Shown piece by piece: positions 1,476 through 60,982 of a DNA stretch of 64,000 nt. Every line of letters starts with the position of its first letter. Position 1 is the first letter of the stretch. A program made the position numbers and the translations under genes. The stretch spans positions 10,775-74,774 of the forward strand of contig CAYTZS010000002.1 of assembly GCA_964442355.1 (NCBI GenBank), given 5' to 3'. The DNA is from an uncultured Saprospiraceae bacterium. Its GTDB lineage: Bacteria > Bacteroidota > Bacteroidia > Chitinophagales > Saprospiraceae. The notes below the pieces were generated by a model that worked only from the letters and a program-made list of their open reading frames with translations, was not told the origin of the DNA and made no database searches.

Positions 1476-4013
1476 ATGTTGAAAAAAATCCCGTTTGTCC
1501 TTGGCTTGCTCGTGTTGGCTGTTTCCCTGTCGGCCCAATCCAAACTGCTGCACCCCGATGCCTTTTTGCCGCACAAAATCGGCAGCCAGTTCACCGGGCA
1601 CAGCCTGCTAGTGGACTACTACCGCCATGTGGCCGCCAACAGCGACCGGGTGAAGCTCGTCGAGTTCGGGCGTACCAACCAGCTACGGCCCCAAATCCTC
1701 GCCATCGTGAGCAGCCCCGAAAATCTGCGCCGCATCGAGGACATCCGGCTCAACAATCTCCGCAGTGCAGGCATCCTTTCCGGAACCGCCGACAACTCGA
1801 ACCCCGTCACCATCGTCTGGCTGGGACTGAGCGTACACGGTAACGAGGCAGCTGGGACTGAGGCGTCCATGCCTGTTTTGTACGAACTCGTCAACCCGAA
1901 CAACCGGGAAACAACCGAGTGGCTCCGCAACACCGTCGTGCTAATCGAGCCGAGCGTGAACCCCGATGGCTACAGCCGCTACACCGACTGGTATCGGCAG
2001 GCCAGCCCCCAGTTGCCCGACCCCAATCCGCAATCACGGGAGCACGTGGAACCGTGGCCGGGTGGCCGGGTGAACCACTACCTGTTCGACCTGAACCGGG
2101 ACTGGGCCTGGGCCACGCAGGTGGAGACCCAAAACCGCCTGAAGATTTACAACGACTGGCTACCACATGTGGTGGCGGACATCCACGAGCAGGGCTATGA
2201 TGCGCCGTATTACTTCCCGCCGGCAGCGCAGCCTTACCACCAGTACCTCACGAAGTGGCAAGCCGAGTTTCAGGTGGAAATCGGTCGCAACCATGCCAAA
2301 TACTTCGACCGAAACGGTTGGTTGTACTTCACGAAGGAGGTGTTCGACCTGTTTTATCCCAGTTATGGCGACACCTACCCCTGCTACAACGGCGCCATCG
2401 GCATGACCTACGAGCAGGGCGGCATCCGGGCGGGGCGAGCCATCAACCTGCCCAACGGGGATACGCTGACCCTCGCCGACCGGGTGGCGCACCATCAGGC
2501 GACGGCACTTTCCACGGTGGAGATTTCGGCCAAAAACGCCGGACGGCTGGTGCAGAACTTCGCCGATTTTTACAAACGCTCGCAAAACAACCCGCCCGGC
2601 GAGTACAAGGCTTTTGTGGTAAAAAGCTCGAACCCCGCTGCGAAAATCAGGGCATTTGCGGAACAACTTGACCGCCTCGGCATCCGGTACGGCAAAGTAG
2701 GGAAGACGCCGACGGGTCTAAGCGGCTACGATTACGTGACCGGGCAGGAGGCCAGGTTTGCCGTAGGCGAAAACGACCTCGTGGTGAGTGCCTACCAGCC
2801 GAAGGGCTTGTTCGCCCAGGTTTTGCTTGACCCTGAATCGGTCATAGTGGACTCCAGTACTTACGACATCACGGCTTGGTCGCTACTGCATGCGCATGGT
2901 TTGGCGGCATTTGCATCCCGTGTGCGCATTGACCCCGCCGGGCAGGGCTACGATTTTGCGAAGCAAAACACGGCACCGCCTGCGGCCACGCCGTATGCCT
3001 ACCTCGTTCCGTGGAACTCGATGCAGTCTGCCCGCTTCTTGGCGGAGGTCGTGAAAAACGGCATCGTCTGCCGCTACACAGAGTCGCCTTTCACGGTCGA
3101 GGGCAAGGACTGGCCTGCTGGGACGCTCGTCATCACGCAAGCCGACAACCGCAAGCATCCCGGTTTCGATGCGGTGGTGCAGGCTGCCGCCAATCGCTTG
3201 AACCACCCTGTGACGCCCGTGCAGACGGGCTTCGTGGAGGCTGGCCGTGACTTCGGGTCGGACGCCATGCGCCTCATCACTGCCCCCAACGTGCTGGTAC
3301 TTTCGGGCGAAAAAACCTGGAACAACGAATTTGGGCAGGTCTGGTTTTACTTCGACAAAGACGTGAGCTACCCTGCCACCTACGTGGATGCTGACCAACT
3401 TCCGGGCATGGATTTGAAGGATTACAACGTGCTGGTGCTGCCGGAAGGTAGTTTTGATTTCGACGATACCACGTTGGAAAAGCTCGGCAACTGGGTCGGC
3501 GACGGTGGCAAGCTCATCGCCCTCGGCAATGCGAATACCTCGCTGGCCGACAAGAAAGGGTTCAACCTAGCGAAATACGCCAAGGCTTCGGACAAGGACG
3601 CCGCCCTCTCGGAGTCAGACCGCCACGCCCTCGACCACCGCACAGCACTGTTCAAGGACCGCAGCCGCACCTCCATTTCCGATTTCAACCCCGGTGCTGT
3701 GGTGCGCACCAAGATGGACACCTCGCACCCACTGGCGTTCGGCATGAAGGACTATTATTTCTCGCTGAAAACTAGCAACCTGCGCTACGACCTGCTGAAA
3801 GAGTCTTGGAACGTGGGCTACCTCGAAGACAATTATTTGGCGCACGGTTTCATTGGCGCCAACGTGAAAAAACTGCTGAATAACTCCGCTTCGTTTGCTG
3901 TGCAGAATAGGGGTGGGGGGCAGGTGGTTTACCTGATTGACAACCCGCTGTTTCGCTCATTTTGGGAGGAAGGGAAGCTGCTTTTTAGCAATGCGCTGTT
4001 CCTTGTAAATTGA
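1476..4013 (+). CDS. M14-family zinc carboxypeptidase, secreted
   Basis: 845 aa. Signal peptide MLKKIPFVLGLLVLAVSLSAQ. Zinc-ligand motif HGNE in LSVHGNEAAGTEASM, typical of M14. Confidence 0.85.
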   Translation: MLKKIPFVLGLLVLAVSLSAQSKLLHPDAFLPHKIGSQFTGHSLLVDYYRHVAANSDRVKLVEFGRTNQLRPQILAIVSSPENLRRIEDIRLNNLRSAGILSGTADNSNPVTIVWLGLSVHGNEAAGTEASMPVLYELVNPNNRETTEWLRNTVVLIEPSVNPDGYSRYTDWYRQASPQLPDPNPQSREHVEPWPGGRVNHYLFDLNRDWAWATQVETQNRLKIYNDWLPHVVADIHEQGYDAPYYFPPAAQPYHQYLTKWQAEFQVEIGRNHAKYFDRNGWLYFTKEVFDLFYPSYGDTYPCYNGAIGMTYEQGGIRAGRAINLPNGDTLTLADRVAHHQATALSTVEISAKNAGRLVQNFADFYKRSQNNPPGEYKAFVVKSSNPAAKIRAFAEQLDRLGIRYGKVGKTPTGLSGYDYVTGQEARFAVGENDLVVSAYQPKGLFAQVLLDPESVIVDSSTYDITAWSLLHAHGLAAFASRVRIDPAGQGYDFAKQNTAPPAATPYAYLVPWNSMQSARFLAEVVKNGIVCRYTESPFTVEGKDWPAGTLVITQADNRKHPGFDAVVQAAANRLNHPVTPVQTGFVEAGRDFGSDAMRLITAPNVLVLSGEKTWNNEFGQVWFYFDKDVSYPATYVDADQLPGMDLKDYNVLVLPEGSFDFDDTTLEKLGNWVGDGGKLIALGNANTSLADKKGFNLAKYAKASDKDAALSESDRHALDHRTALFKDRSRTSISDFNPGAVVRTKMDTSHPLAFGMKDYYFSLKTSNLRYDLLKESWNVGYLEDNYLAHGFIGANVKKLLNNSASFAVQNRGGGQVVYLIDNPLFRSFWEEGKLLFSNALFLVN

Positions 4014-12634: not shown

Positions 12635-12710
12635 TTGTGTTTGGGTGTTTGAGTGTTTATGTGTTTGCGGTGCCTCGTAAACACTCAAACACATAAATAC
12701 CCAAACACAA
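12635..12710. repeat. word-built hairpin (GTTTGGGT/GTTTGAGT/GTTTATGT words and their complements)
   Basis: TTGTGTTTGGGTGTTTGAGTGTTTATGTGTTT ... AAACACTCAAACACATAAATACCCAAACACAA. It fills the 89-nt cysO-moeZ gap. Confidence 0.75.
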
Positions 12711-12990: not shown

Positions 12991-13000
12991 TTTTTTATGA

Positions 13001-13095
13001 AGGTTTAGAGAGTTTAGGGAGGTTTAGGAGGTTTAATCGGGCAGTCGGCACAAGCCAACTAAACCTTCTAAACCTCTTTAAACCTTCTAAACCTC
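13001..13095. repeat. GGTTTAGRRGG-word hairpin, copy 1 of 4
   Basis: The left arm is AGGTTTAGAGAGTTTAGGGAGGTTTAGGAGGTTTAA and the right arm is TAAACCTTCTAAACCTCTTTAAACCTTCTAAACCTC. The right arm overlaps the last codons and stop of the JAMM gene. Confidence 0.8.
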
Positions 13096-14580: not shown

Positions 14581-14675
14581 TAGGTTTAGGAGGTTAAGTG
14601 GGTTTAGGAGGGTTAGGAGGTTTAGGTTGTGCATAGCGATAAACCTCCTAAACCCACTAAACTTCCTAAACCTCT
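14581..14675. repeat. GGTTTAGRRGG-word hairpin, copy 2 of 4
   Basis: TAGGTTTAGGAGGTTAAGTGGGTTTAGGAGGGTTAGGAGGTTTAGG ... AAACCTCCTAAACCCACTAAACTTCCTAAACCTC. It lies in the 5' leader of cysM. Confidence 0.8.
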
Positions 14676-26874: not shown

Positions 26875-26968
26875 GGTGTTGTTAGTTGTTGGTTGTTGGC
26901 TATTGGCTTGGTGCAGTAACTAACCAACAGCCAACAGCTAATAGCCAATAGCTAACAGCCAATAGCCA
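26875..26968. repeat. GTTGGCTATTGG / CCAATAGCCAAC-word hairpin, copy 1 of 2
   Basis: TGTTGTTAGTTGTTGGTTGTTGGCTATTGGCT ... TAACCAACAGCCAACAGCTAATAGCCAATAGCTAACAGCCAATAGCC. It lies between the convergent stops at 26872 and 26970. Confidence 0.8.
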
Positions 26969-27726: not shown

Positions 27727-27811
27727 TTTTTTAATTGGGTTTAGAAGGTTTAGAGGGGTTTAGAGGGTTTAGAAGGGTCATCGTTAAACCTTCTAAACTT
27801 TCTAAACCCCT
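27727..27811. repeat. GGTTTAGRRGG-word hairpin, copy 3 of 4
   Basis: GGGTTTAGAAGGTTTAGAGGGGTTTAGAGGGTTTAGAAGGG ... TAAACCTTCTAAACTTTCTAAACCCCTTCTAAACCTC. It lies just upstream of the NIPSNAP gene start. Confidence 0.8.
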
Positions 27812-28095
27812 TCTAAACCTCATCACCAAATCGCCCCCAAAATAGGAGGTTATTTGGCAAAAGAAACAACATTGACAAAAGCTTACCCCGTGTGGCCAAA
27901 CCCCAATTCTTTGGTGCTGCATTTTTAATAAAACCTTAACCCATTTTTATAAATCCAAGAGCGGGGGTAATGCGGTATATCAACTGTCTAGTTGATTAAA
28001 TTCACTACCGTCTTTTGAACATAAACCCGGTGCAAAACTTTACTTTTATACGGCCTATGCGGAGAAAAACTACCTGACCAAACCACTTGTCAGCC

Positions 28096-31000
28096 ATGCG
28101 AAAATCAATCGCCACCCTTGCCGCATTCGCAGTCATCCTTTGCTGCGCAATCCCTGTTGAAGCACAATATTTTGGCAGAAACAAGCCCAAGTACGAAGAC
28201 TTCAACTTCAAGGTGCTGCAAACGCCGCACTACCAGATTTACCATTACCTGAACAACCCGGAACTGGAGCGGGCACTGGCCAACCAAGCCGAGCATTGGT
28301 ACACGCTTCACCAAGCCGTGCTGGCGGACACCTTTGCCGAGCGCAACCCGCTGCTGTTTTACAACGACCATGCAGACTTCCAGCAAACGAACGCCATTGG
28401 CGGTGAAATCAACATCGGCACGGGCGGGGTGACGGAGGCGCTGAAAAACCGGGTGGTGCTGCCCATTGCCATGTCCAACGAGCAGACCAAGCACGTGCTG
28501 GGCCACGAGCTGGTACACGCCTTCCAGTACAACATGGTGCTCAACGGCGACAGCACTTCCATGCGCAACCTCGGCAACCTCCCACTCTGGATGGTGGAGG
28601 GCCTCGCCGAGTACCTCTCCATTGGTCGCACGGACGCCAACACCGCCCTCTGGATGCGGGATGCCGTGCTCAACGACCGAGTGCCCACCCTGCGTGACCT
28701 CGACAGGCCCGAGTTTTTTCCGTACCGATGGGGGCAAACCTTCTGGGCATTCGTGACCGGGCTAAAAGGCGACGACATCATCCAACCGCTGTTCATGACC
28801 ACGGCACGGGAGGGCTTCGATGTGGCCTGCGTGAAGGTGCTGGGCATGAAGGAAAAAGAACTCTCCAAGCTTTGGGTGAGCGCCATCAAGGACTACTACG
28901 GCCCTTATTTGGGCGACAAAAAAGAGCGCTTCGTGGGCCGCCAACTCATCGGCAAAGACCAAACACGGGAGGGCCGCTACAACATCGCCCCGGTGTTGAG
29001 TCCCAACGGCAAGTACATCGCTTTCCTCTCGGAAAAAGACATCTTCGGCATTGACCTGTACCTCGGCGATGCCGTGACGGGCAAGGTGCTGCGCAAAATC
29101 CACAGCAGCACCAGAGAAAGCCACCTTGACGACCTGAGCTTTATCGAGAACGCCGGAACTTGGTCGCCCGACAGCCGTGAAATCGTTTTCGTGGCCGTGA
29201 GCAAGGGCAACAACGTGTTGGTCATCAAGGACTTGGACGGCAAGCACAAGGAGAGTTTTGAAATACCCGGTGTGCCCGCTTTCAGCAATCCCGCTTGGTC
29301 GCCAGATGGCCGCAGCATCGTGGTGGCTGGGCTGGTGAACGGGCAGGTTGACCTCTTTCAAATCCAATTGTCCAGCAAAAAACTGACGCAACTGACCAAC
29401 GACCGTTTCGCCGAGATGCAGCCTGCTTGGTCGGCGGATGGCAGCCAGTTGGTGTTTGCTACCGACCAATTGAGCTTTGAACGGGGAGCAACCAAATGGA
29501 CGTTCAACCTCGCCATTCGGGACATGGCATCGGGCATCACTACCGTCAACGAGTTCTTCTACGGCGCCGACAACCTCAATCCCGTCTGGGACAACGACGG
29601 CAACATCCTCTTCCTCAGCGACCGGGACGGTTTCCGCAACCTCTACCGCTTCGAACCCGCCACGGGCAAGCTGTTCCAAATGACCGACCTGCTCACGGGC
29701 ATCAGCGGCATCACGCCCTATGCCCCGGCGCTCTCGGCTTCGACGAAAGAGACCCGTGACCGCATCGTTTTTACGCATTATTTCAACGGTGGCTACCGGA
29801 TTTACAGGGCAAAATCGGAGGACTTCATCAACCGGGAAGTGGCCGCTGACGCCGTGGACATGAAGCCTGCGCAGCTCATCAAGACCAACCGCATGGCCCC
29901 CGATTTTGTGAGCAGCAACTTGGCGCAACTGAACAAGCTGCCCTCGCTGCCCGATTCGTCGTTGCAGGCGGTGGCTTACAGGCCCCATTTCAAACTGGAC
30001 TACATCGCAGGTGGCGGCGGTGTGGGCGTGGGCATCGGCAATACTTACGGCGGCCCGGTGTCAGGTATTGGTGGGGGCGTTGACCTTATTTTTGGCGACA
30101 TCGTTGGCGACCACCAAGTTTATTCCAGCATCTTCCTGAACGGCGAGGTATTAGATGCCGGGTTCTCCGCCGCCTATCTCAACCGCAAAAACCGCTTTGG
30201 TTGGGGCGTTGGCCTATCGCATTTGCCTTACCAAAGTGGGCGCTCTGGCTACGTTGGCCTCGATACGCTGCCGATTAAGGATTCGCCCGACCTGTTGTTT
30301 GACCACTATGTTTTTGACCAAATCAGGACCTTTGAAGAAAAGCTCAGCGTCTTTGGGGAGTACCCTTTTTCCAAGACCCTGCGCATCGAGGGCAGCGGTT
30401 CATTTGCATTCTACAACAACCGCATTGACCGCAACCAACTGTACTATGATGCTTTCGGCAACCTGGTTTACCAAGACCGAGAGAAAATCAGCGAAAGGGA
30501 AGCAGGGCTAAACCTCTTTGAGGGAAAACTCGGCACGGCATCCGTGGGCCTTGTTGGTGACAATTCCTACTTTGGCATTGCCTCGCCCACCAAGGGCTAC
30601 CGTTTCCGGTTGAGCGGCGAGCAGTATTTTGGCGACATCAAACTGACGAACCTCACTGCCGACGTCCGCAAATACTTCTTCGTGAAGCCTTTCACCTTTG
30701 CCGTGCGGGCCATGCACCAAGGCCGCTATGGCACCGATGCCAACGCCTTTTACAACCTTTACCTCGGCTACCCGTGGTACATGCGGGGCTACGGCTTCAG
30801 TGATTCGTATGAGATTCTGGAGAAAAACGGCCGTTCTGTGGACGACCTTTTTGGCAGCAAGATGCTGCTCGCCAACGCCGAGGTGCGTATCCCGCTCTCC
30901 GGCCCAGAACAATTGGCGCTGCTGAAGTCCAGGGTCTTGTTTACCGAGCTGTCCTTCTTCACCGATGGCGGCTACGCATGGGATGTCTTCGAAAAACCTA

Positions 31001-31164
31001 CGGAAGGCAACCTGACCCAATTCGATTTCAAGCCACTGTTCAGTGCGGGCGTGTCGCTGCGCATCAACCTCTTCGGGGCGCTGGTGCTGGAACCCTACTA
31101 TGCTTGGCCGCTGCTGAAGGATACGCATGGCAGCTTTGGGTTGAACATTGTGCCGGGATGGTGA
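28096..31164 (+). CDS. outer-membrane fusion protein: HExxH peptidase-like domain + PD40/TolB-type beta-propeller repeats + C-terminal Omp85/surface-antigen-like beta-barrel
   Basis: Trimmed to the ATG at 28096, with a signal peptide. It has HELVH at GHELVHAFQ. PD40-like repeats are SPNGKYIAF, WSPDSREIVF, WSPDGRSIVV and WSADGSQLVF. The C-terminal third has alternating hydrophobic strands and ends in ...NIVPGW. Confidence 0.7.
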   Translation: MRKSIATLAAFAVILCCAIPVEAQYFGRNKPKYEDFNFKVLQTPHYQIYHYLNNPELERALANQAEHWYTLHQAVLADTFAERNPLLFYNDHADFQQTNAIGGEINIGTGGVTEALKNRVVLPIAMSNEQTKHVLGHELVHAFQYNMVLNGDSTSMRNLGNLPLWMVEGLAEYLSIGRTDANTALWMRDAVLNDRVPTLRDLDRPEFFPYRWGQTFWAFVTGLKGDDIIQPLFMTTAREGFDVACVKVLGMKEKELSKLWVSAIKDYYGPYLGDKKERFVGRQLIGKDQTREGRYNIAPVLSPNGKYIAFLSEKDIFGIDLYLGDAVTGKVLRKIHSSTRESHLDDLSFIENAGTWSPDSREIVFVAVSKGNNVLVIKDLDGKHKESFEIPGVPAFSNPAWSPDGRSIVVAGLVNGQVDLFQIQLSSKKLTQLTNDRFAEMQPAWSADGSQLVFATDQLSFERGATKWTFNLAIRDMASGITTVNEFFYGADNLNPVWDNDGNILFLSDRDGFRNLYRFEPATGKLFQMTDLLTGISGITPYAPALSASTKETRDRIVFTHYFNGGYRIYRAKSEDFINREVAADAVDMKPAQLIKTNRMAPDFVSSNLAQLNKLPSLPDSSLQAVAYRPHFKLDYIAGGGGVGVGIGNTYGGPVSGIGGGVDLIFGDIVGDHQVYSSIFLNGEVLDAGFSAAYLNRKNRFGWGVGLSHLPYQSGRSGYVGLDTLPIKDSPDLLFDHYVFDQIRTFEEKLSVFGEYPFSKTLRIEGSGSFAFYNNRIDRNQLYYDAFGNLVYQDREKISEREAGLNLFEGKLGTASVGLVGDNSYFGIASPTKGYRFRLSGEQYFGDIKLTNLTADVRKYFFVKPFTFAVRAMHQGRYGTDANAFYNLYLGYPWYMRGYGFSDSYEILEKNGRSVDDLFGSKMLLANAEVRIPLSGPEQLALLKSRVLFTELSFFTDGGYAWDVFEKPTEGNLTQFDFKPLFSAGVSLRINLFGALVLEPYYAWPLLKDTHGSFGLNIVPGW

Positions 31165-31300
31165 GGATAGTGATGAGAGATGAGTGATGAGGGATGAGTG
31201 GGCTGTAGGTTGTTGGCAGCCAATAGCCAACGACCAACAGCTAACAACCAATAATGACCAATGACACCAACAACCGATGACCAACATCATTGACCACGGC
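31165..31300. repeat. low-complexity word tract (GATGAGNG words, then GTTGGC/CCAATAGCCAAC words), copy 2 of the CCAATAGCC family
   Basis: GAGGATAGTGATGAGAGATGAGTGATGAGGGATGAGTGGGCTGTAGGTTGTTGGCAGCCAATAGCCAACGACCAACAGCTAACAACCAATAATGACCAATGACACCAACAACCGATGACCAAC. Confidence 0.7.
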
Positions 31301-31490
31301 GTTATCGGTTCATACCTTGCAGCATTATCAGGTTATAGTTCAAGCCGCCAAGTATTGGGCGAGGGTTATGAACCAATATTGGGCGGTATAATTCCATAAA
31401 AACATCGAACATGATGGAGCCACCAGAGTATATGCACAAACCAATGAAAACGCACTGTCTCTGAGTGCTCAAGGAATGTAAAATTGCAAG

Positions 31491-31578
31491 GGAGGGTTTA
31501 GAGGGTTTAGGAAGTTTAGGAGGTTTAGTATTAAACCCATCTAAACCCTCTAAACCTCCTAAACCCTCTAAACCTTTT
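31491..31578. repeat. GGTTTAGRRGG-word hairpin, copy 4 of 4
   Basis: GGAGGGTTTAGAGGGTTTAGGAAGTTTAGGAGGTTTAGTA ... TTAAACCCATCTAAACCCTCTAAACCTCCTAAACCCTCTAAACC. Confidence 0.8.
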
Positions 31579-31590
31579 AAATTTAATGCC

Positions 31591-31674
31591 ATGAAAAAGC
31601 TGATTAAATTCGTCCTTGCCGCTATGTTTGTGAAAGGGGTAGTTGATCGGTTTCGCAAGCATCAAGTGGCATAA
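31591..31674 (+). CDS. candidate 27-aa small hydrophobic/basic protein (MKKLIKFVLAAMFVKGVVDRFRKHQVA)
   Basis: An ATG to TAA ORF immediately after the hairpin, with one short hydrophobic helix. There is no other support. Confidence 0.2.
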   Translation: MKKLIKFVLAAMFVKGVVDRFRKHQVA

Positions 31675-31694
31675 ATGATTGGTTGTGGGGTGGT

Positions 31695-31791
31695 GTCGGA
31701 ATCACGGATTTAACGGATAAAAGGATTGCGCTGAATATGCATGCTTGCATATCCGTGAAATCTCATAATCCGCTAAATCTGTGATTCTGAC
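31695..31791. repeat. long hairpin with 24-nt arms, downstream of the 205-aa gene
   Basis: GTCGGAATCACGGATTTAACGGAT ... ATCCGCTAAATCTGTGATTCTGAC pairs at 21 of 24 positions. It has an inner GCATATGCATGC...GCATATCC segment. It likely acts as the terminator of the minus-strand gene ending at 31810. Confidence 0.7.
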
Positions 31792-31809
31792 ATTCATCAA
31801 CAACCCACC

Positions 31810-32427
31810 TCACAGTGCCCTCACCAGCAACTGCACCGGAGGACTCGTCTTCTTGTTTTTCTTGCCATATATTTCCAAGATATTTGGGCCACTGGGCAGG
31901 TTCGTCACTTCAATCAGCAGCGTATCGAATGCATCGTGCATCACAAAATCGTCGCCCACTTTGAGCTTGACGATGAAGAAAGAACTGCCTGCCCGTTCGT
32001 CAATGCGGATGATAGCCGAACCTATCACCGAGCCTACGCTTATAAAAGTAGCACTGAACTCGCTTGGGTCTATGGGCGTTGACTCCTCCTTGTTCAGCCT
32101 AAAACCACTCAGGCCCGCAATATAGCGGTCGCCATTGGCCACCAGCAGCACATAGTTTGAGAGTGGAAGCAGCTCATTCTTGATAAAATCTGCTTTCCTT
32201 TTTTGCATCAAATTGGTCGTCGTCGTGTTCTTTTCGTTTTCAGGCACCACAGCGTCTTTCAACAAATTCAATGCAGCCGCCAAAGCCAGCATGGTTACTG
32301 GCGGGGCAGTAAATACATCGGCATGGTTGGTCATGCCTTCAAGGACACTTTCGCCATCAGCAATGACGGTTGAAACTGGTGATTTTTCAGTAGGCAAAAT
32401 GATGAAAAGTTTTTTTCTGCGAGCCAT
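31810..32427 (-). CDS. hypothetical protein (orphan, 205 aa)
   Basis: ATG start and no signal peptide. The N-terminal half looks helical (LALAAALNLLKDAV) and the C-terminal half looks beta-rich. I recognise no family. It lies 72 nt downstream of the 21-bp repeat array. Confidence 0.6.
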   Translation of the reverse strand: MARRKKLFIILPTEKSPVSTVIADGESVLEGMTNHADVFTAPPVTMLALAAALNLLKDAVVPENEKNTTTTNLMQKRKADFIKNELLPLSNYVLLVANGDRYIAGLSGFRLNKEESTPIDPSEFSATFISVGSVIGSAIIRIDERAGSSFFIVKLKVGDDFVMHDAFDTLLIEVTNLPSGPNILEIYGKKNKKTSPPVQLLVRAL

Positions 32428-32499
32428 AAATGTTAGATTTTATTGTTAAAAAAATGGTTTACGGTTTGTGAATGCCTCAAATAAATGCTCCATTAGGCT

Positions 32500-32772
32500 C
32501 CAAGTCACGGCAAGCCATTGCCAAGTCATGGCAAGCCCTTTCCAAGTCACGGCAGGCCATTGCCAAGTCATGGCAAGCCCCTTCCAAGTCATGGCAAGCC
32601 CTTTCCAAGTCACGGCAGGCCATTGCCAAGTCATGGCAGGCCATTGCCAAGTCACGGCAAGCCCCTTCCAAGTCACGGCAAGCCCTTTCCAAGTCACGGC
32701 AGGCCATTGCCAAGTCACGGCAGGCCATTGCCAAGTCATGGCAAGCCCCTGCCAAGTCATGGCAGGCTTGTT
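32500..32772. repeat. tandem array of 13 x 21 bp, consensus CCAAGTCAYGGCARGCC(ATTG/CYTT), with no spacers
   Basis: The units were counted directly as 32500-32520, 32521-32541, and so on to 32752-32772. The last unit is degenerate. All six frames are open across the array. Confidence 0.95.
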
Positions 32773-32799
32773 TGCTAAAAAGCTTGCGTGGTAGCCCTA

Positions 32800-32883
32800 C
32801 TTGTCATTGGTGTTCATCGCCATCCGGTTGATGGCGATGGTTTTCTCGAAGATGTTCTTGATGCTGTATTTATACAGCTCATT
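32800..32883 (-). pseudogene. possible 3' stump of a disrupted gene (…NELYKYSIKNIFEKTIAINRMAMNTNDK*)
   Basis: A 28-codon open stretch with native-looking G+C. It starts 1 nt after the nuclease gene's stop codon, and a TAG overlapping that stop closes the frame just upstream. It ends at the TAG at 32799..32797. Confidence 0.25.
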
Positions 32884-32884
32884 G

Positions 32885-34087
32885 TTAGACTAAATATTTT
32901 GTGACGTCAATCATTGAGCCTTTTTCTATTTCAGGCTGAGCAATTAGATATTTATTTTCACGATAGTGAATAACCACATGCCAGTACATTCGGTCTTCAT
33001 TTTCAGTAGTCCAAAAGTTCTTGATTAGAGGTTCAAAATATTTGTATGGAATTAACAGTAAATTGTCTGGAGAGCCGCATCCATAGGCAATATAAGCATT
33101 GTCTAATGTTCTTAAAAATTCATTTTGATGTGGATGGAAAGCAAACCAAAATTTTTCATATTGACCTTGTTTGTGTGGTTTTGAAATTGAACAAATAAGT
33201 CCAGTCCTTTTATCTTTGTCAGTATATGAAATCCTCGTTTGTTTTATAAAGTTGATTTTTATTTTTTCTTGAATTCTTAATAAACATTCTTCGTGAAAAT
33301 TTACTGGAATTGCCTTATCTTCTGGTGATTTTCTCTTTTTCTTATCTGTACGAATTTCTTCTATTTCTTCAATAACGTCATCACCTTCTTCTTCAAGTTG
33401 AAGGTCTTTTGATGTCAAAAAGATAAGCTCAATTAATTTGTCAATGCGAGTGTATTCTCTCGGTTTTAACAGTTCATTGATTTGTTGGATAGTTTTTGTG
33501 TCGTTTAGTGTTTCTTTTAAACTTAAGAGCTTAAGTAAAGAATCGGTGCTTAGCAATCGGATGTCCCAAGCATGCTGCGAGCCACGAATTTGAGCTTCAA
33601 GGTCACCAGTGTCTTGTCTGCCAACTACTATCAATATAGATGATTGAACTTTGTCAATTCTTGCTTGGTCAATTAGTTTTTTTCTGTAATCTGCAATTGT
33701 GTCAAGATTTATTCTGTAGGCATCTGTTGTCTTAACTTCTACAACTAAGCTGTGATTTTCACTTGATGTCCATATGCCATCAAACCCAACATCATTTTGT
33801 TTGCCTCTATAAAGCCCATTTTGAACTGCAAAACCAAGCCGAGTTCCAATTTGATTTATTATATCTTGAAGTGCAAAGCCACCATCATCAAATTTATCTG
33901 TCAAGCAGTTATCTGCAAATTGTTTTAAAAGTGTTGAAGGTACTTGGTCTAAAAGTTCTCTAAATTCAATTGATGTGACATTATTATCCTTGAGCTTTCC
34001 ATCACCAGCAAATGCAAGAATTTGAGAAAGTGATTTTGAACTGAAAGTCCCCTTGCTTTTTGTCCAAATTTCAGATATACTATTCAT
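32885..34087 (-). CDS. orphan PD-(D/E)xK nuclease-fold protein (restriction-endonuclease-like N-terminal domain plus an unassigned C-terminal domain)
   Basis: 400 aa. The motif is D103-x13-E117-V-K119 (VGFDGIWTSSENHSLVVEVKTTD). An acidic/basic linker (EEEGDDVIEEIEEIRTDKKKRK) is followed by a roughly 130-aa C-terminal module. The gene is conspicuously AT-rich relative to its flanks. Confidence 0.65.
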   Translation of the reverse strand: MNSISEIWTKSKGTFSSKSLSQILAFAGDGKLKDNNVTSIEFRELLDQVPSTLLKQFADNCLTDKFDDGGFALQDIINQIGTRLGFAVQNGLYRGKQNDVGFDGIWTSSENHSLVVEVKTTDAYRINLDTIADYRKKLIDQARIDKVQSSILIVVGRQDTGDLEAQIRGSQHAWDIRLLSTDSLLKLLSLKETLNDTKTIQQINELLKPREYTRIDKLIELIFLTSKDLQLEEEGDDVIEEIEEIRTDKKKRKSPEDKAIPVNFHEECLLRIQEKIKINFIKQTRISYTDKDKRTGLICSISKPHKQGQYEKFWFAFHPHQNEFLRTLDNAYIAYGCGSPDNLLLIPYKYFEPLIKNFWTTENEDRMYWHVVIHYRENKYLIAQPEIEKGSMIDVTKYLV

Positions 34088-34448
34088 TTCTTATTGTATT
34101 TATCGTCTTGTATTTGAAGTATAATTTACGCCTTCGCTTGCAACGCAGCCAAACACCACGCCACAAGCCCATCCGGCCATCACCACCAACAACATCACTC
34201 TTATCACTTCAGGAGAAAAACAACAGGTAAGCAAAGTTCCATGTCATTTCTCAGGGTCATTCAATCACAGGTCGTCGGAGCCAACTATTTGGCCATTTGG
34301 TAAGCGCAATATAGCAGCACCGACAAAAGTTCCACAAGTGCCATTTATGGAATGAAATGGTTTTTGAGGGAACGGTAGCAATTGTTTAGGGAACGGTCGA
34401 AAATGGGCATTTGGGTGTTGATTGTTAGCCGTTGGTTTTTGGAGTAGG

Positions 34449-34910
34449 TTATGGGTTATTTGTCCGAATATGGGTCTCCAGCCTCATTTTCAAAATCGGA
34501 TAGTCCTTCCCTTCGCTGTCTTTATCGGTTCTGTCGTATGGCACAAACCCCATTTTGGTATAAAAATCAACAGCATGTTGATTTTGCTCGTTTACGTCCA
34601 CTTTGTCGGCTTTCAATTCATTGATTGCAAAATTGATTAACCTCCTACCAAGCCCTTGACCAATATGTTCGGGCGACAAGAATAGCATTTCAATTTTATG
34701 GTCTGCGATGCCGATGAAGCCAATCACCCCATCATCTTCCGTCAAACAAAATACTTGGAAGGCATTGAAGTCAATGTCAATCACAATATTTTTAAAATAG
34801 TCAATGTCAGATGGTGCTAAAAAATGGTGGGTGGCACGAACGGATTTTTCCCAGACTGCAATCAGTTGTTCTTTAAATCCATCGTGGTAGGGTTGTATTT
34901 CGATTTTCAT
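34449..34910 (-). CDS. GNAT-family N-acetyltransferase
   Basis: Trimmed to the ATG at 34910 (MKIEIQPYHDGFKEQLIAVW). It has the acetyl-CoA loop HIGQGLGRRLINFAI (Q/RxxGxG/A). Confidence 0.8.
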   Translation of the reverse strand: MKIEIQPYHDGFKEQLIAVWEKSVRATHHFLAPSDIDYFKNIVIDIDFNAFQVFCLTEDDGVIGFIGIADHKIEMLFLSPEHIGQGLGRRLINFAINELKADKVDVNEQNQHAVDFYTKMGFVPYDRTDKDSEGKDYPILKMRLETHIRTNNP

Positions 34911-35015
34911 ATCATCTTGTTTTAATGGATGAATGTCATTAATCCCTTCCTGAAATACTTGCACCTCTTGAGTATAAAACACGTAAAAATAGAAGGCTTT
35001 TCCAAGAACGAACAA

Positions 35016-35080
35016 GCGAGGGCATGACTACCGCCATGCCCTCGCCCTTATACCTTCATACCTCAAACCTCCATACCTTA
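35016..35080. repeat. hairpin plus ATACCT-word tract
   Basis: GCGAGGGCATG-ACTACCGC-CATGCCCTCGC, a perfect 11-bp stem, is followed by CCTTATACCTTCATACCTCAAACCTCCATACCTTA. Confidence 0.65.
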
Positions 35081-38000
35081 CTGCCCTGACCATATCGGCA
35101 AACGTCCAGGCGTATAAGGCGCCTTCGCCGCTTCCAGTTTCTTGTCGAGTGCAGGCAAATCTACTTCCACGAGCTGTTTCAGCTTCGCCAATTCCGCTTT
35201 AAACAGCTTGCCAGCGATGGCCATTTGCTCCTTCTGCGTCGTGGTAGGGGCGGAGGACGAACTCCAGATGTCGTAGCTCATGCCGTAGATGCGCTCGATA
35301 AGCGACGGGGCATGGGGCTTGTCAATTTTGGAGGCCACGCCGTCGCCGTAGAAGGCCTTGTTCATGTCCTTGATTTTCTCCTCCAACGCCTTCACGTCGT
35401 TCAGCAGATTGGTAGCTGGCTGGTTGAGGGTGTAGGTCGCTTGGCGCATATATTTGACGGTGTTGTTCACCTCACCGAGCAGGGAGGTAGCGCCGCCCCA
35501 AGCACGTTCGAGTTCGGCAGCCTGCGACACATAGGCATCGAGCGCCTGTTTGTCGTTGGCGGGCAAGGTGCTGCCGCCGAGGGTGTTCAGCTTAAACTTT
35601 TGCGGGGCGACCAACTCCGTGGCCTTACCGTTGATGACCTTCGTGAGGCCCACCGTGTAGTCGCCGGGCAGCGCCATGCGGCCACCGTCGGGGCTTTCCC
35701 ACGGCATCCGTTCGCCGCTGCTGAGGCTTACCGGCGAGGGCGAGGGCAGGCGACCATCCCAGACTTGGCGGTTCACGCCTTTTTTCCAGCCAGACTTGAT
35801 TTGACGAACGATTTGCCCGCTGCTGTTTCGGATGGTGAAAAGCAGGTACGGCGCTTCCTCGTTCTGTTCGGCTTGCAGTTCCTCGTAGGTCGGGTAGCGG
35901 ATTTCCTGCTTGTCCTTGATTTGCTTTTTCTCCCAATCCTGCCGCTTCTGTTTGAGGGTTTTCGCCTCGTCTTTTACGAAGTAGGTAAACACAGCACCCA
36001 TCGGTGGATTGGCAGCGGTAAACAGCGATGCGCCTTGGAAACCCTTGCCCGTCTGGTAGCCGAGCGGGGTGGAGACGTTGAACACGAGCGCATCTTTTAT
36101 TGGCAAAACGGCGGCTTCCTTAGTGGGCAGGTCAGCTAGGTGGCGGAGCGGCGAATAATCGTCAAGCACATAAAAGCCCCGCCCGAAAGTGCCGAGCACG
36201 AGGTCGTTTTCCCGGCGCTGGATGGCAATGTCCCGCACGGCAATCGTCGGTAGGCCGCTGGCCAATTTCTTCCAAAACTTGCCGCCGTCGTTGCTGAAAT
36301 GGCAGGTGAACTCCGTGCCGACGAAAAGCAGGTTGCGGTCCACATGGTCTTCGGCGAGGGAGTAAGCACTGCCCCGCTCTGGCATGTTTGCGCTGATGCT
36401 CACCCAAGTGCGGCCCTTGTCGGTACTCTTGAAAACGTATGGCTTGAAGTCGCCCCGCTTGTGGTTGTTGAAGGCGGCGTAAACCACGTTCTCATCGTGT
36501 TGCGAAGCAAGCAAAGCGTTCACATAAGTCAGCTCAGGCACACCGGGGAAGTTGGCGATTTTCGTCCAGGTCTTGCCGCCGTCCTCGGTGATTTGCACGA
36601 GGCCGTCGTCGGTGCCGACGTAGAGCAGGTTGGCATTCTTCGGGCTTTCCGAGAAGGCGACAATATTGCCGTACTCGCTCGTGCTGCCGTTCTTGGCGAT
36701 GGCGTCCATGCTCTGCACACGGCCCATCACGGGCAGCGTGTTGCGGTCAATCTGACGGGTCAAATCGGGGCTGATGGCCGTCCAAGTATCGCCCCGGTCT
36801 TCGGTTTTATAGACCCGGTTGGCACAAAAATAAAGGCGAGTTCCTTTGTGGCGGCTCACCGCCAACGGGCTGTCCCAGTTCCAGCGGAGGCCGTTTTCGC
36901 CTTCGAGTGGTTTGGGCTGAATGGTCGTCATTTCGCCCGATTTGCGGTCGTAGCGAGTGAGTGCGCCGTGCTGCGCCTGGGCATAGATGATGTCCGGGTT
37001 GTCGGGGTCAATCTGCGTCTCGAAGCCGTCGCCGAGGCTGGTCACGTACCAGTCGGCATTGGTGATGCCGTGGCCGTTGCGGGTGCGGCTGGGGCCACCG
37101 AGCGAGAAGTTGTCCTGTGTGCCGCCGTGGATGTGGTAGAACGGCAGCGTGTTGTCCACCTCCACTTTGTAGAATTGCGTGACGGGCAGGTTGCCGTGGT
37201 ATTTCCAGTTTTTGCCCGCATCAAAAGTCTCGTAAACGCCACCGTCGCAGCCGGAGAGCATGTAGTTCGGGTCTTTCGGGTCAATCCAGATGACGTGGTT
37301 GTCCACATGCTTGAAGTCCTCGCCGAGGTTTGTCCAAGACTTGCCGCCGTCCCGGCTTATTTTATTGAAAACATCCATCGAAACGACCGTGTTCGGCTCG
37401 GTCGGATGGGCGAAGAGTTCCACGTAGTAGTTGCCGCTGGTCACGTGGCCGCTCTGCTTCTCCCAGGATGCGCCCCGGTCGGTGCTTTTGAAAAAACCGC
37501 CCTTGCCCTCCTGCGCTTCGACCATGGCGAAGATGATTTCCGGGTCGGATGAAAACGTGAGGCCGATGCGCCCGATGTCACCGCCGGGCAGGCCGCCCGC
37601 TGCTTTTGCCCAGGTTTTTCCACCATCAACGGATTTGTAAATCGTGCTGCCAGCCCCGCCACCCACGTAGGTGAACACATGCCTGCGGCGCTGGTGCGCT
37701 GCCGCAAACAGCACATCTGGGTTGCGGGGGTCCATGATGAGGTCGGTGGCGCCCGTGTGCTCGTCAATCAGCGGCTTGCCGTCGGCACCGTTCAGTACCA
37801 TCGCCCAAGTCTTGCCGCCGTCGGTGGTTTTATACACGCCCCGCTCGCCGCCCTCCTTCCAGAGCGGGCCTTGCGCAGCAACGAAAACCACGTCCGAGTT
37901 GCGGGGGTCAACGATGATTTTGGCGATGTGCTCCGAGTTTTTCAGGCCCATGTTCGCCCAGCTTTTGCCACCGTCGTTGGAGCGATAGACGCCGTCGCCG

Positions 38001-38392
38001 TAGGCCACCGAGCGCTGGTTGTTGTTCTCGCCCGTGCCCACCCAAACCGTGCTGGGGTTGCTGGGGTCGAGCACCACGCAGCCGATGGAGTAGCTGCCCT
38101 CGCCATCGAAGATGGGTTCGTAGGTGGTGCCCGCATTGGTCGTTTTCCAGACGCCGCCGCTGGCCGAGGCCACGTAATACACGGCCCGGTTCTGTGGATG
38201 CACGGCAAAATCGCTGATGCGCCCACTCGTGACCGCCGGACCTACACTGCGCCACGAAAGGCCGAGGCCAAGCGTGTCGAGGTAGTGCTTCGGCTCCTCT
38301 TTTTTGGGTTCGTCTTTTTTGTTTTTCTGTGAAAAGGCTTGAGTGGAAAGCAGCAGCAGGGCTGCCAATAACATGTGAGTTAGTTTGTTCAT
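35078..38392 (-). CDS. sortilin/VPS10-like BNR (Asp-box) repeat protein, secreted
   Basis: 1104 aa with a signal peptide. It has many SxDxGxTW Asp-boxes (SNDGGKSW, TTDGGKTW, SVDGGKTW, STDRGASW, SRDGGKSW and others). Confidence 0.85.
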   Translation of the reverse strand: MNKLTHMLLAALLLLSTQAFSQKNKKDEPKKEEPKHYLDTLGLGLSWRSVGPAVTSGRISDFAVHPQNRAVYYVASASGGVWKTTNAGTTYEPIFDGEGSYSIGCVVLDPSNPSTVWVGTGENNNQRSVAYGDGVYRSNDGGKSWANMGLKNSEHIAKIIVDPRNSDVVFVAAQGPLWKEGGERGVYKTTDGGKTWAMVLNGADGKPLIDEHTGATDLIMDPRNPDVLFAAAHQRRRHVFTYVGGGAGSTIYKSVDGGKTWAKAAGGLPGGDIGRIGLTFSSDPEIIFAMVEAQEGKGGFFKSTDRGASWEKQSGHVTSGNYYVELFAHPTEPNTVVSMDVFNKISRDGGKSWTNLGEDFKHVDNHVIWIDPKDPNYMLSGCDGGVYETFDAGKNWKYHGNLPVTQFYKVEVDNTLPFYHIHGGTQDNFSLGGPSRTRNGHGITNADWYVTSLGDGFETQIDPDNPDIIYAQAQHGALTRYDRKSGEMTTIQPKPLEGENGLRWNWDSPLAVSRHKGTRLYFCANRVYKTEDRGDTWTAISPDLTRQIDRNTLPVMGRVQSMDAIAKNGSTSEYGNIVAFSESPKNANLLYVGTDDGLVQITEDGGKTWTKIANFPGVPELTYVNALLASQHDENVVYAAFNNHKRGDFKPYVFKSTDKGRTWVSISANMPERGSAYSLAEDHVDRNLLFVGTEFTCHFSNDGGKFWKKLASGLPTIAVRDIAIQRRENDLVLGTFGRGFYVLDDYSPLRHLADLPTKEAAVLPIKDALVFNVSTPLGYQTGKGFQGASLFTAANPPMGAVFTYFVKDEAKTLKQKRQDWEKKQIKDKQEIRYPTYEELQAEQNEEAPYLLFTIRNSSGQIVRQIKSGWKKGVNRQVWDGRLPSPSPVSLSSGERMPWESPDGGRMALPGDYTVGLTKVINGKATELVAPQKFKLNTLGGSTLPANDKQALDAYVSQAAELERAWGGATSLLGEVNNTVKYMRQATYTLNQPATNLLNDVKALEEKIKDMNKAFYGDGVASKIDKPHAPSLIERIYGMSYDIWSSSSAPTTTQKEQMAIAGKLFKAELAKLKQLVEVDLPALDKKLEAAKAPYTPGRLPIWSGQ

Positions 38393-59900: not shown

Positions 59901-60043
59901 TTGTTTATCGGGAGAACATTGCAGAAGTGGTACAGTCCACCCACCAGATTCGCATAGATGGCTGGAACGATGGCATGTACTTCGTGCAGCTGACACCAGT
60001 TGGCCGGAAGCCAATTGCACAGCGACTTATGGTTGCAAAATGA
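56936..60043 (+). CDS. T9SS-secreted multidomain surface protein (2 SprB-type repeats, 2 GEVED domains, 2 Cys-framed repeats, C-terminal sorting domain)
   Basis: 1035 aa with a signal peptide. SprB-like repeats include [37 protein letters not shown] motifs are GEVEDYV and GEVEDYT. The C-terminal [15 protein letters not shown]...GMYFVQL is a Por/T9SS type A sorting signal. Confidence 0.85.
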
Positions 60044-60110
60044 TGGGTTTGATAGGTTTGATGGGTTTGATTTGTCACGTTACGCTTCAAACCCATCAAA
60101 CTCCTCAAAC
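60041..60110. repeat. word-built hairpin (GATGGGTTTGAT words) between convergent genes
   Basis: TGATGGGTTTGATAGGTTTGATGGGTTTGATTTG ... CTTCAAACCCATCAAACTCCTCAAAC. Confidence 0.75.
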
Positions 60111-60982
60111 TATTTTTTTGGCAACAATTTGATGTAATCATTCACCACATCGTTCGCTACGGCAACAGCGAGGTTGTAGTGGCGGATTTTCCAGCCTTCG
60201 GGGGTCTTTTGCAGCACCCCGCTGCCCCGGCAGGGGCCCATCCATGTGTCGAGCTGCTCCTCGAACCAAGCAATTTGGCCATTGGAAGAAAGGTAAACTT
60301 GGCGGTCGTGGGCCGTGAACGCCCAGGCCGTTTCCCGCTCAAAGTATTTCTTTGCCCATTCCTTCATTTCATCCCTGAGCCAGCGCTCGCTGGCATCGGT
60401 GCCGAGATAGATACCTTCGGGGGTCATGCTGCCGAAAAAAGTGTCTTCGTCGGCCACTGCGGCGGCATGGTGCCAAGCGTCCATGAGCTTGTTGATGGCG
60501 GCAACGTCGGTGTTCGGTTCAGTCTGGCAGCCGTCACGGCGGCGGGTATCGGTAATCTGCGTGATTTTCCAGCCATTTTCACCCTTGAAAAGCTGGAAGG
60601 CGTTTACGCCGCAGTGCGACATTTTATTGCCAAGGTAAAAAGTGTACTCCGTCCAAGCGGTTGCGAGGCGACCGTCCACTCGCACATCGTAGCTCCAAAT
60701 GCGCTCGTCCCAGACTTCGGGGTGCGGCGTCCCAACTGCTTTGGCAAACTCGTCCACCGTTTCGTTGATGAGCATGGGCTTGCCTTCTTTGTTGGTGACG
60801 GCCGTTTGCAGTCGGGCCGATGGGTCGAAGGTGGAACGGAGCATGGTGCTGTCGCCCGCCCGCATGGCGTCGAACATGCGCTGGATGGTGGTGATGACGG
60901 CGGCTTCGTTGTCGTTGGCTGTTTGGGCCTTTGTACCGAAATGAAGGAGTAGGAAGACTGGAAAGAGGATTCTTTTTAGCAT
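60110..60982 (-). CDS. tandem SnoaL-like / NTF2-fold (DUF4440-type) protein, secreted
   Basis: Trimmed to the ATG at 60982 (MLKRILFPVFLLLHFGTKAQ). It has two roughly 130-aa halves with similar W-rich NTF2-like patterns. Confidence 0.65.
   Translation of the reverse strand: MLKRILFPVFLLLHFGTKAQTANDNEAAVITTIQRMFDAMRAGDSTMLRSTFDPSARLQTAVTNKEGKPMLINETVDEFAKAVGTPHPEVWDERIWSYDVRVDGRLATAWTEYTFYLGNKMSHCGVNAFQLFKGENGWKITQITDTRRRDGCQTEPNTDVAAINKLMDAWHHAAAVADEDTFFGSMTPEGIYLGTDASERWLRDEMKEWAKKYFERETAWAFTAHDRQVYLSSNGQIAWFEEQLDTWMGPCRGSGVLQKTPEGWKIRHYNLAVAVANDVVNDYIKLLPKK

Follow-up and report, generated by a model that had tools for sequence, protein, structure and literature searches.

The window analysed in this work is a stretch of 64,000 nucleotides from an uncultured Saprospiraceae bacterium (assembly GCA_964442355.1, contig CAYTZS010000002.1, positions 10,775 to 74,774), and the subject of the analysis is a tandem array of 13 units of 21 bp at 32500..32772, delimited by Tandem Repeats Finder (TRF), a unit list and autocorrelation, together with the gene beside it. 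This gene (31810..32427, minus strand), called as an open reading frame (ORF), encodes a 205-aa protein and is the only constant companion of the array from locus to locus. From its ATG (32427) to the near end of the array there are 72 nt, and this gap (32428..32499, minus strand, from direct reading) is presumed to contain the core promoter and a short leader. On its other side, the array lies 112 nt from the stop codon of a 400-aa ORF (32885-34087, minus strand). Both distances had been given correctly in an earlier note on this DNA. No strand is assigned to the array, to its dyads or to the two hairpins that enclose it and the 205-aa gene. No description of such arrays in Saprospiraceae or Bacteroidetes was found by full-text literature searches, and the cassette of array plus gene, which recurs at the other loci described below, is apparently undescribed.

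In the window array, TRF reported the 21-bp unit at 32500-32764 (12.6 copies, 87% matches, score 355) and also a 63-bp super-period, which goes with the alternation of two unit subtypes, and the autocorrelation showed peaks of 0.84-0.88 at lags of 21, 42 and 63. The units abut head-to-tail without spacers. When the array was cut into 21-mers from 32500, the subtypes were …GGCAGGCCATTG and …GGCAAGCCCYTT, and the 13 units and their order reported previously, hybrid-B-A-B-B-A-A-B-B-A-A-B-degenerate, were reproduced. The perfect 17-bp dyad TTGCCAAGTCATGGCAA was read directly at 32518..32534, 32560-32576 and 32728-32744, as had been claimed, and a fourth perfect dyad, CTGCCAAGTCATGGCAG, was found distally at 32749..32765, where it was also flagged by the terminator-pattern scan. 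In this fourth dyad, the outer pair was changed on both sides from T-A to C-G with pairing kept (CTGCC...GGCAG). The arms were paired 6/6 at only 4 of the 12 unit junctions and 3-4/6 at B-type junctions, so conservation is stricter for the direct repeat than for the dyad.

The core CCAAGTCAYGGCARGCC occurs 13 times in the array (12 exact copies and one with a single mismatch), and only three further matches, each with 2-3 mismatches, were found elsewhere in the 64 kb. The total of 16 matches compares with 0.88 expected by chance and was reached in 0 of 100 shuffles. The relaxed dyad TTGCC-N7-GGCAA was not enriched outside the array. The exact 21-mer tandem pattern had no match in 185,579 species-representative genomes; since the window itself holds no other copy, a dispersed repeat of the repetitive extragenic palindrome or bacterial interspersed mosaic element (REP/BIME) type was rejected. 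An array of clustered regularly interspaced short palindromic repeats (CRISPR) was rejected as well, because the units have no spacers and no cas-type ORFs lie in the flanks. A search of 30500-35500 against Rfam 15 gave nothing on the array and only sub-threshold matches to miRNA models on the 9-mer hairpin at 31487-31571. It was also observed that A-type units on the plus strand (32549-32563 and others) read TGGCAGGCCATTGCC, which resembles the sigma-54 -24/-12 element, TGGCAC-N5-TTGC. The GG-to-GC spacing is one base short and the orientation is away from the family gene; the resemblance is probably coincidental.

The 205-aa gene had been called an orphan, and this label is wrong. A word-indexed search returned 13 relatives, and a profile search against 1.84 billion cluster representatives returned 870 at E <= 0.001. 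Counted as clusters at 50% identity, at least 150 belong clearly to the family, and the matches number up to 870. Among the best 150 of the 870 matches, the alignment ran from the N-terminal domain onward, and almost all proteins had 200-210 residues. A profile of the N-terminal domain only returned mostly proteins of 202-208 aa again, plus a few shorter ones that are probably truncated. The architecture of the family is uniform, a helical bundle at the N-terminus followed by a C-terminal Fn3 domain. In the AlphaFold2 model of the 205-aa protein (predicted local distance difference test score, pLDDT, 89), helices were placed at 18-34, 46-59 and 68-97 and the Fn3 domain at 126-204. Only the Fn3 part was matched when this model was compared by Foldseek with PDB and BFVD, and the helical domain modelled alone (pLDDT 86) had no match below E=1 in either. 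The whole protein belongs to no Pfam, NCBIfam, PADLOC or PHROG family.

Purifying selection acts on the gene. Compared with L001, it had no non-synonymous changes at a synonymous divergence (dS) of 0.08; the ratio of non-synonymous to synonymous divergence (dN/dS) was 0.24 against L003 and 0.1-0.35 in other pairs. Positive selection on the family protein was rejected, as dN/dS was 0.03-0.48 in all pairs and in both domains. In the comparison of window 31810-32427 with L003 100-717, dS was 0.33 in the N-terminal 112 codons and 1.45 in the Fn3 half, while dN/dS was about 0.2 in both halves. This mosaic of dS suggests a recombination breakpoint between the helical and Fn3 domains. An origin of the family from plasmids or phages was rejected, since tblastn against plasmids (72,556 plasmids, no match) and phages and three scans of viral contigs gave nothing.

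To see what accompanies the gene elsewhere, loci were compared from species-representative genomes (five, from Saprospiraceae and "Bacteroidetes" metagenome-assembled genomes, MAGs), JGI metagenomes (four) and assembly look-ups (12). A locus was counted only if it was independent and had at least 250 nt of upstream DNA (n=18). A tandem array was found upstream of the family gene in all 18 loci, which come from Saprospiraceae, one Flavobacteriales MAG and metagenomes, and which include proteins merely 16-24% identical to that of the window. The periods were 21 bp in 11 loci, 20 bp in four, 22 bp in two and 10 bp in one, when multiples are assigned to their base unit. Besides the window (WIN, 21 x 13), the first group contains L011 (21, …CTCAACGAG…), L014 (21 x 8, TTCTTAGTTTAAGAAAGGGTA), L019 (21 x ~9, TCGACAACCTGTCGA), L020 (21 x 10.8, CATTGTTGGTCAACAATG), L021 (21 x 5.8), L026 (21 x 8.1), L029 (21 x ~8, TTGCATACCATGCAA), L013 (42 x 3), L015 (21/42 x ~8) and L022 (21/42, degenerate). 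The second contains L005 (period 20, degenerate, at least 8 units, TCCGC every 20 bp), L012 (20 x ~10, TTCGGCAAGTCGTGCCGTAA), L018 (20 x ~8, TTTCTCGTCGAGAAA) and L016/17 (40 x 3.4). The period of 22 bp was found in L027 (22 x 10, on a 67%-GC contig) and L032 (22 x 15.6, the Flavobacteriales MAG, 63% GC), and that of 10 bp in L028 (10 x 8, TGATAATTnn). Each period thus equals one or two turns of B-DNA, and the argument from two helical turns, which had been made from the window array alone, is strengthened by these loci. A super-period of two or three units is frequent. Overall, the arrays have about 6-16 copies of units of 10-22 bp.

Two loci were kept outside the count. The sequence of L003/L004 ends 99 nt upstream of the gene, within what appear to be two different 21-bp units, and two independent assemblies stop there at the identical base. 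For L024/25, 239 nt upstream were available, with an abutting ORF and no repeat in them. Short-read contigs (Logan, JGI) were observed to end inside the array or at its edge in several independent samples (L001 1-153, L002 1-123, L003/L004 1-99 and L033 1-33). Because arrays break short-read assemblies just upstream of the gene, they are systematically lost from metagenome contigs, and copy numbers there are unreliable.

As a specificity control, TRF was run over 176.9 kb of non-redundant DNA from the window and the loci (period of at least 10, length of at least 80 bp, at least three copies). Apart from a 63-bp repeat in L021, all arrays that passed stood upstream of a family gene. Conservation beside homologues of the neighbouring genes had been posed as a check on the first reading: the 21-mer itself did not bear it out, as the genome search above shows, but an array of the same kind of period upstream of the 205-aa homologues did. 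This positional specificity contradicts a generic minisatellite, which had been offered as one explanation. The exceptional array (L021 375-738) has 63-bp units with hairpins of the GTTACACAGTGTAAC type; it sits in a 191-bp duplication that copies the 3' end of the gene upstream of it, and it ends ~60 nt before an epimerase gene.

While the geometry of the arrays is conserved, their unit sequences are mostly unrelated between loci, and their GC content (28-65%) is not conserved. The gene-strand cores of the window (TTGCC(A/G)TGACTTGGCAA) and of L016 (TTGCCGTGACGTGGCAA) agree at 16 of 17 positions at a protein identity of 49%, which implies constraint on the core itself. A dyad related to this core was found in L012, and the outer half-sites TTGC...GCAA are common to WIN, L003, L016 and L029, whose proteins are at least 44% identical to that of the window. 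At closer range, no difference separates L002 from the window. In L001, the gene is 98% identical with synonymous changes only, yet the unit order differs, so that unit order changes even between close strains. L003 is the orthologous locus, with a PD40 gene 92% identical in DNA and a family gene 80% identical, and it has a different unit, TTGCGACGTGGTCGCAA. Two other ORFs (128 and 343 aa) were observed in L003 as an insertion that separates the PD40 gene from the family gene. The paralogues L014 and L015 encode proteins that are 90% identical and share both flanks, and their units are ~70% alike by eye.

The array lies 54-75 nt from the ATG in seven loci, including the window, and 98-157 nt in six. 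In the window gap, a T-rich box, ATTTTTTTAAC, stands at 32445-32455, and most short-gap loci likewise have a T-rich box about 30 nt ahead of the ATG. The gap also contains GGCATTCACAA at 32466-32476, which is present in L019 too, and L020 has similar GCATT...CACAA stretches. No stable hairpin was found in the window gap (minimum free energy -8 kcal/mol, z 0.14), and the gap is likewise unstructured in L014 and L018 (z 0.1 to 1.4 over the three loci).

Both strands of every array were folded and compared with shuffles. Nine of the first 12 arrays had z <= -4 on both strands, and structure on both strands is the signature of dyads in DNA. Dyads with 5-8-bp arms were found in most units, for example TTGCC-N7-GGCAA, TTGCGAC-N3-GTCGCAA, TTCGGCA-N5-TGCCGAA, TTTCTCG-N-CGAGAAA, CATTGTTG-N2-CAACAATG and TCTCCG-N4-CGGAGA. 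The palindromes stressed in the earlier note are thus common but not universal, as no such excess was found in L014, L021 and L022, and the emphasis placed on them was reduced.

On these grounds we tentatively favour, at a little under an even chance, the reading that the array is a helically phased protein-binding cis-element beside the promoter of the family gene and that it controls this gene. In the proposed mechanism, each cassette would run from the tandem array through a short promoter region rich in A/T to a monocistronic gene for a protein of ~205 aa and end in a terminator hairpin, and the array would be the cis-acting half of this two-part cassette, acting as double-stranded DNA. 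The units would set one short recognition element, usually a dyad of 15-19 bp, per one or two helical turns, and because of this spacing all sites would face the same side of the helix. An oligomerising and probably dimeric DNA-binding protein may then coat that face cooperatively. As the array of the window ends 72 nt before the ATG, where an upstream promoter element is expected, such a filament would switch or tune the adjacent gene. Unequal exchange may homogenise the units within an array and let unit sequences drift between loci, and selection would maintain the period, the tandem arrangement and the position. Of all this, the association with the gene, the period, the position and the non-coding nature of the arrays are shown by the data, whereas protein binding, the nature of the binder and the effect on transcription are inferred. 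A role as duplex DNA is favoured because folding shows no strand bias, the unit of L028 is too short for a hairpin, the gap holds no hairpin in the window and other short-gap loci, and the period is tied to the helical repeat.

Several observations weigh against this proposal. No binder of the array was identified. No transcription-factor gene is conserved as a neighbour, and the neighbours differ in every locus examined, including a KAP NTPase, a GerE-type regulator, an ABC/AAA ATPase, CHAT-TPR, an rve integrase with an XRE helix-turn-helix (HTH) protein, and housekeeping genes. The 205-aa protein itself has no fold recognisable by Foldseek as DNA-binding, given that its helical domain matched nothing below E=1 and its C-terminal part is a plain Fn3 domain, and its pI is near neutral; it was therefore rejected as an obvious DNA binder. 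Furthermore, unit similarity does not track protein similarity: the proteins of L012 and L018 are 81% identical and their units differ, whereas WIN and L016 share the core at the protein identity of 49% given above. A promoter-proximal operator would also be expected closer to the start codon than the 216 to ~400 nt that separate array and ATG in five loci, some of which have a strong hairpin in this interval. L014, L021 and L022 have weak dyads or none, with no excess over shuffles. Finally, the canonical Bacteroidetes -7 box, TAnnTTTG, was absent from all 17 upstream regions, although its chance expectation is also low and the absence carries little weight.

Among the alternatives, the one that survives best is that the array acts as RNA. 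It would be transcribed together with the gene or ahead of it, and a processed RNA of unit length or a multivalent RNA would bind the 205-aa protein, as antitoxin to toxin in the manner of type III toxin-antitoxin systems or within a defence module. We consider this unlikely. The layout, with locus-specific repeats directly 5' of a single gene for ~200 aa, is that of ToxIN, CptIN and TenpIN (PMC3401426), and the cassette shares with type III systems an array 5' of a single ~150-200-aa gene, repeats that vary among loci and a location in variable or defence regions: some cassettes adjoin mobile or defence-type genes, and that of the window lies in a low-GC island. Hairpins occur between array and gene at some long-gap loci, namely L032 (AAAACCCC-N4-GGGGTTTT), L026 and L013. 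In the window, the A/G variation of the core makes the innermost arm pair G-U on the gene strand and A-C on the other, and the sense strand folds better (-117 vs -99 kcal/mol).

However, type III antitoxin repeats have 31-62 nt in 1.9-5.6 copies (PMC3401426, Table 2), compared with 10-22 nt in ~6-16 copies here, and no terminator hairpin separates array and gene in the window, L014 or L018. The 205-aa protein is not ToxN-like: it had no PADLOC or Pfam match and is modelled as a helical bundle plus Fn3 rather than as an endoribonuclease fold. Membership of the type III class was therefore rejected, since the toxin fold, the intervening terminator and the length and number of repeats all disagree with it (PMC3401426). 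The fold preference is mixed across loci, with the sense strand better in ~10 arrays and the antisense strand in ~6, and the match of the period to the helical repeat of DNA has no obvious meaning for an RNA. An array of RNA hairpins was rejected because no consistent strand bias was seen, dyads are not in excess in several arrays (L014, L021 and L022) and a unit of 10 nt, as in L028, is unable to form a hairpin. The RNA option raised in the earlier note is weakened by the same facts.

A separate hypothesis, regarded as quite unlikely, is that the 205-aa protein uses its helical domain to bind its own array and Fn3 to oligomerise, for autoregulation or as a centromere-like landmark. The gene is the only one conserved in cis with the array, locus-specific units call for a locus-specific reader, the half-sites TTGC...GCAA are shared by WIN, L003, L016 and L029, and plasmid centromeres upstream of their own operons provide a precedent (PMC5016525). 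Self-recognition was kept apart as the weaker hypothesis because no HTH, ribbon-helix-helix (RHH) or other DNA-binding fold is present in the protein, its pI is near neutral, and unit and protein similarity are uncoupled. Its basic N-terminus is not conserved either, and the protein has neither an NTPase partner nor homologues on plasmids or phages.

A slim chance was given to a purely structural role, in which a period of integral turns sums an intrinsic bend, so that curved upstream DNA activates the promoter or recruits nucleoid proteins without a specific binder. This would explain why the sequence is free and the period constrained, and why no dedicated regulator was found. The curvature was predicted with a wedge model, and the results are qualitative only. 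L013, L015, L020, L026, L027 and L028 were predicted to exceed all genomic control windows in curvature. In contrast, the window array was predicted to be straighter than 90% of genomic controls, and L014, L017, L018, L021 and L029 were unremarkable. With the predicted path so mixed and the window array straight, intrinsic curvature was rejected as a common property; moreover, a structural role leaves the frequent dyads and the retained 17-bp core unexplained.

It is highly improbable that the array is a functionless minisatellite, a by-product of a repeat-prone lineage that hitchhikes beside the family gene. Short tandem repeats and hairpins built from repeats abound between the genes of these genomes, and the arrays rearrange fast, as such an origin would have it. 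Against it stand the same position in 18/18 loci at protein identities down to about 17% and genomic GC contents of 28-67%, the constrained period and the near absence of comparable arrays elsewhere. A coding repeat has next to no probability: all six frames are open over the window array and 21 bp equal seven codons, for instance in a plus-strand ORF at 32472-32831 (119 aa), but equivalent arrays have periods of 20, 22 and 10, which are not multiples of three and cannot hold a frame, so a coding heptad repeat was rejected and the ORFs are a by-product of a stop-free unit.

Compared with the earlier note as a whole, the geometric idea stood, and the emphasis on palindromes, the RNA option, the minisatellite and the labels given to the two flanking genes were weakened. 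A contingency locus had also been among its options. Such loci have units of 1-9 bp in an ORF or a promoter spacer; with a 21-bp unit and a position upstream of the presumed promoter, the array does not fit, and this option was dropped.

Among known systems, the phased cis-element proposed here would work most like tandem-repeat plasmid centromeres and iterons, and it appears to be a member of neither. Tandem-repeat centromeres upstream of an operon are known as parC (R1, pSK41), parS (pSM19035) and tubC (pBtoxis) (PMC5016525). As in the window cassette, an uninterrupted array of short repeats lies upstream of or overlaps the adjacent promoter, whose position here is presumed; direct and inverted repeats can mix, and the repeats are specific to each system. 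A protein coats the plasmid arrays and regulates transcription, which for the cassette is the proposal made above. The cassette differs in having neither an NTPase motor (ParA, ParM or TubZ) nor an RHH or HTH binding protein, and no partition NTPase was found among the neighbours of the loci examined. It is also chromosomal, several cassettes can occur in one genome, and its only conserved partner is the helical-bundle and Fn3 protein. A further centromere, sopC of plasmid F, has 12 repeats of 43 bp with a short inverted repeat in each (PMC5016525) and resembles the window array in being a long uninterrupted tandem with one short dyad per longer direct-repeat unit. The window unit is half as long, no SopA/SopB-like gene is present, and the array is upstream rather than downstream of the gene.

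Iterons of theta-replicating plasmids are direct repeats of 17-22 bp phased at about 22 bp. The arrays here are like them in unit length, helical phasing, copy number (5-13) and locus-specific sequence. Iteron geometry had already been pointed out for the window array. Membership of the class fails, as no Rep family is encoded among the neighbours and the loci lie on chromosomal contigs of 220-360 kb. Nothing suggests a replicon at the loci, DnaA boxes and an unwinding element not having been looked for systematically.

Taken further, the array and the helical-bundle/Fn3 protein may form an unrecognised self-contained two-component system that is widespread in Bacteroidota, which we regard as possible and on balance doubtful. 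If this is true, each gene copy would have a private, fast-evolving phased array as its DNA or transcript partner, for example in a chromosomal nucleoprotein landmark or switch, or in a repeat-RNA/protein defence or addiction module, built on proteins unrelated to partition systems, iteron replicons and type III toxin-antitoxin systems. In any case, the finding extends from a single odd repeat to a conserved array-plus-gene cassette across Bacteroidota. If the cis-element reading holds, the arrays would be a class of non-coding elements defined by geometry (tandem arrangement, period and position) and not by sequence, and such a class would escape homology-based annotation and searches of the Rfam type. 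It would also give a first functional handle on a large unannotated family of ~205 aa for which Pfam and NCBIfam have no model. One gene with one private array would be tractable for studying the co-evolution of protein-DNA or protein-RNA recognition with concerted repeat evolution, and the arrays could supply orthogonal regulatory parts for Bacteroidota.

The cassette of the window lies in a low-GC island (~31200-35050, GC down to 33% vs a window mean of 53%) that also contains the 400-aa ORF and a GNAT acetyltransferase gene (34449-35015, minus strand) and looks horizontally acquired. The island is flanked by a PD40/Tricorn-like gene (28087-31164, plus strand) and a sortilin/BNR gene (35078-38392, minus strand). 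The 400-aa ORF had been labelled a nuclease, which was not confirmed, as it had no match in any of the five libraries searched (Pfam, PHROGs, PADLOC, NCBIfam and PDB sequences). Between its stop codon and the array, the terminator-pattern scan found a hairpin with an 11-bp stem (32814..32840), taken as the distal boundary of the module. A T run follows this hairpin on the plus strand only, and its role for the minus-strand 400-aa gene is therefore uncertain. At other loci, genes of mobile-element or defence type often adjoin the cassettes (L020 2088-4365, L029 3732-6615, L032 640-2374 and L024 2240-2929); by precomputed Pfam matches, they encode a KAP NTPase, CHAT-TPR, an rve integrase with an XRE HTH protein, and an ABC/AAA_21 ATPase. 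This hints that the cassette resides in variable genomic islands. In several Saprospiraceae loci, a C/A-rich tract (…CCAAACCACCCC(T)AAACCAACAAAA…) adjoins the array distally (L012 ~3650-3735, L014 ~3700-3766, L015 ~3690-3754 and L018 ~2690-2750). The tract is conserved between L014 and L015, the paralogues whose units are ~70% alike, and it may mark the distal edge of the cassette.

On the 3' side of the 205-aa gene, TRF located a long hairpin of tandem 9-mers at 31495..31575, which has a folding energy of -52 to -53 kcal/mol for each strand (z ~ -7.8) and is presumed to be the terminator that closes the cassette. It is one of a series of intergenic hairpins in which each arm consists of 4-5 tandem copies of a 7-9-mer, for example four copies of GGTTTAGAA facing four of TAAACCTTC. 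The others in the window are at 12637-12709, 12994-13094, 14582-14674, 26878-26968, 27737-27820, 31169-31251 and 60041-60111. Their stems have 25-35 bp, and four folded examples reached -45 to -53 kcal/mol (z -7.8 to -9.2); the hairpin at 31169-31251 is weaker (-29 kcal/mol, z -4.2). We know of no description of such hairpins for this lineage. They are reminiscent of the cyanobacterial STRR heptamer repeats, stand at sites where terminators are expected, and recur in related Saprospiraceae loci, with examples at L003 727-804 and 3165-3261, L013 3850-3953 and L019 1573-1684.

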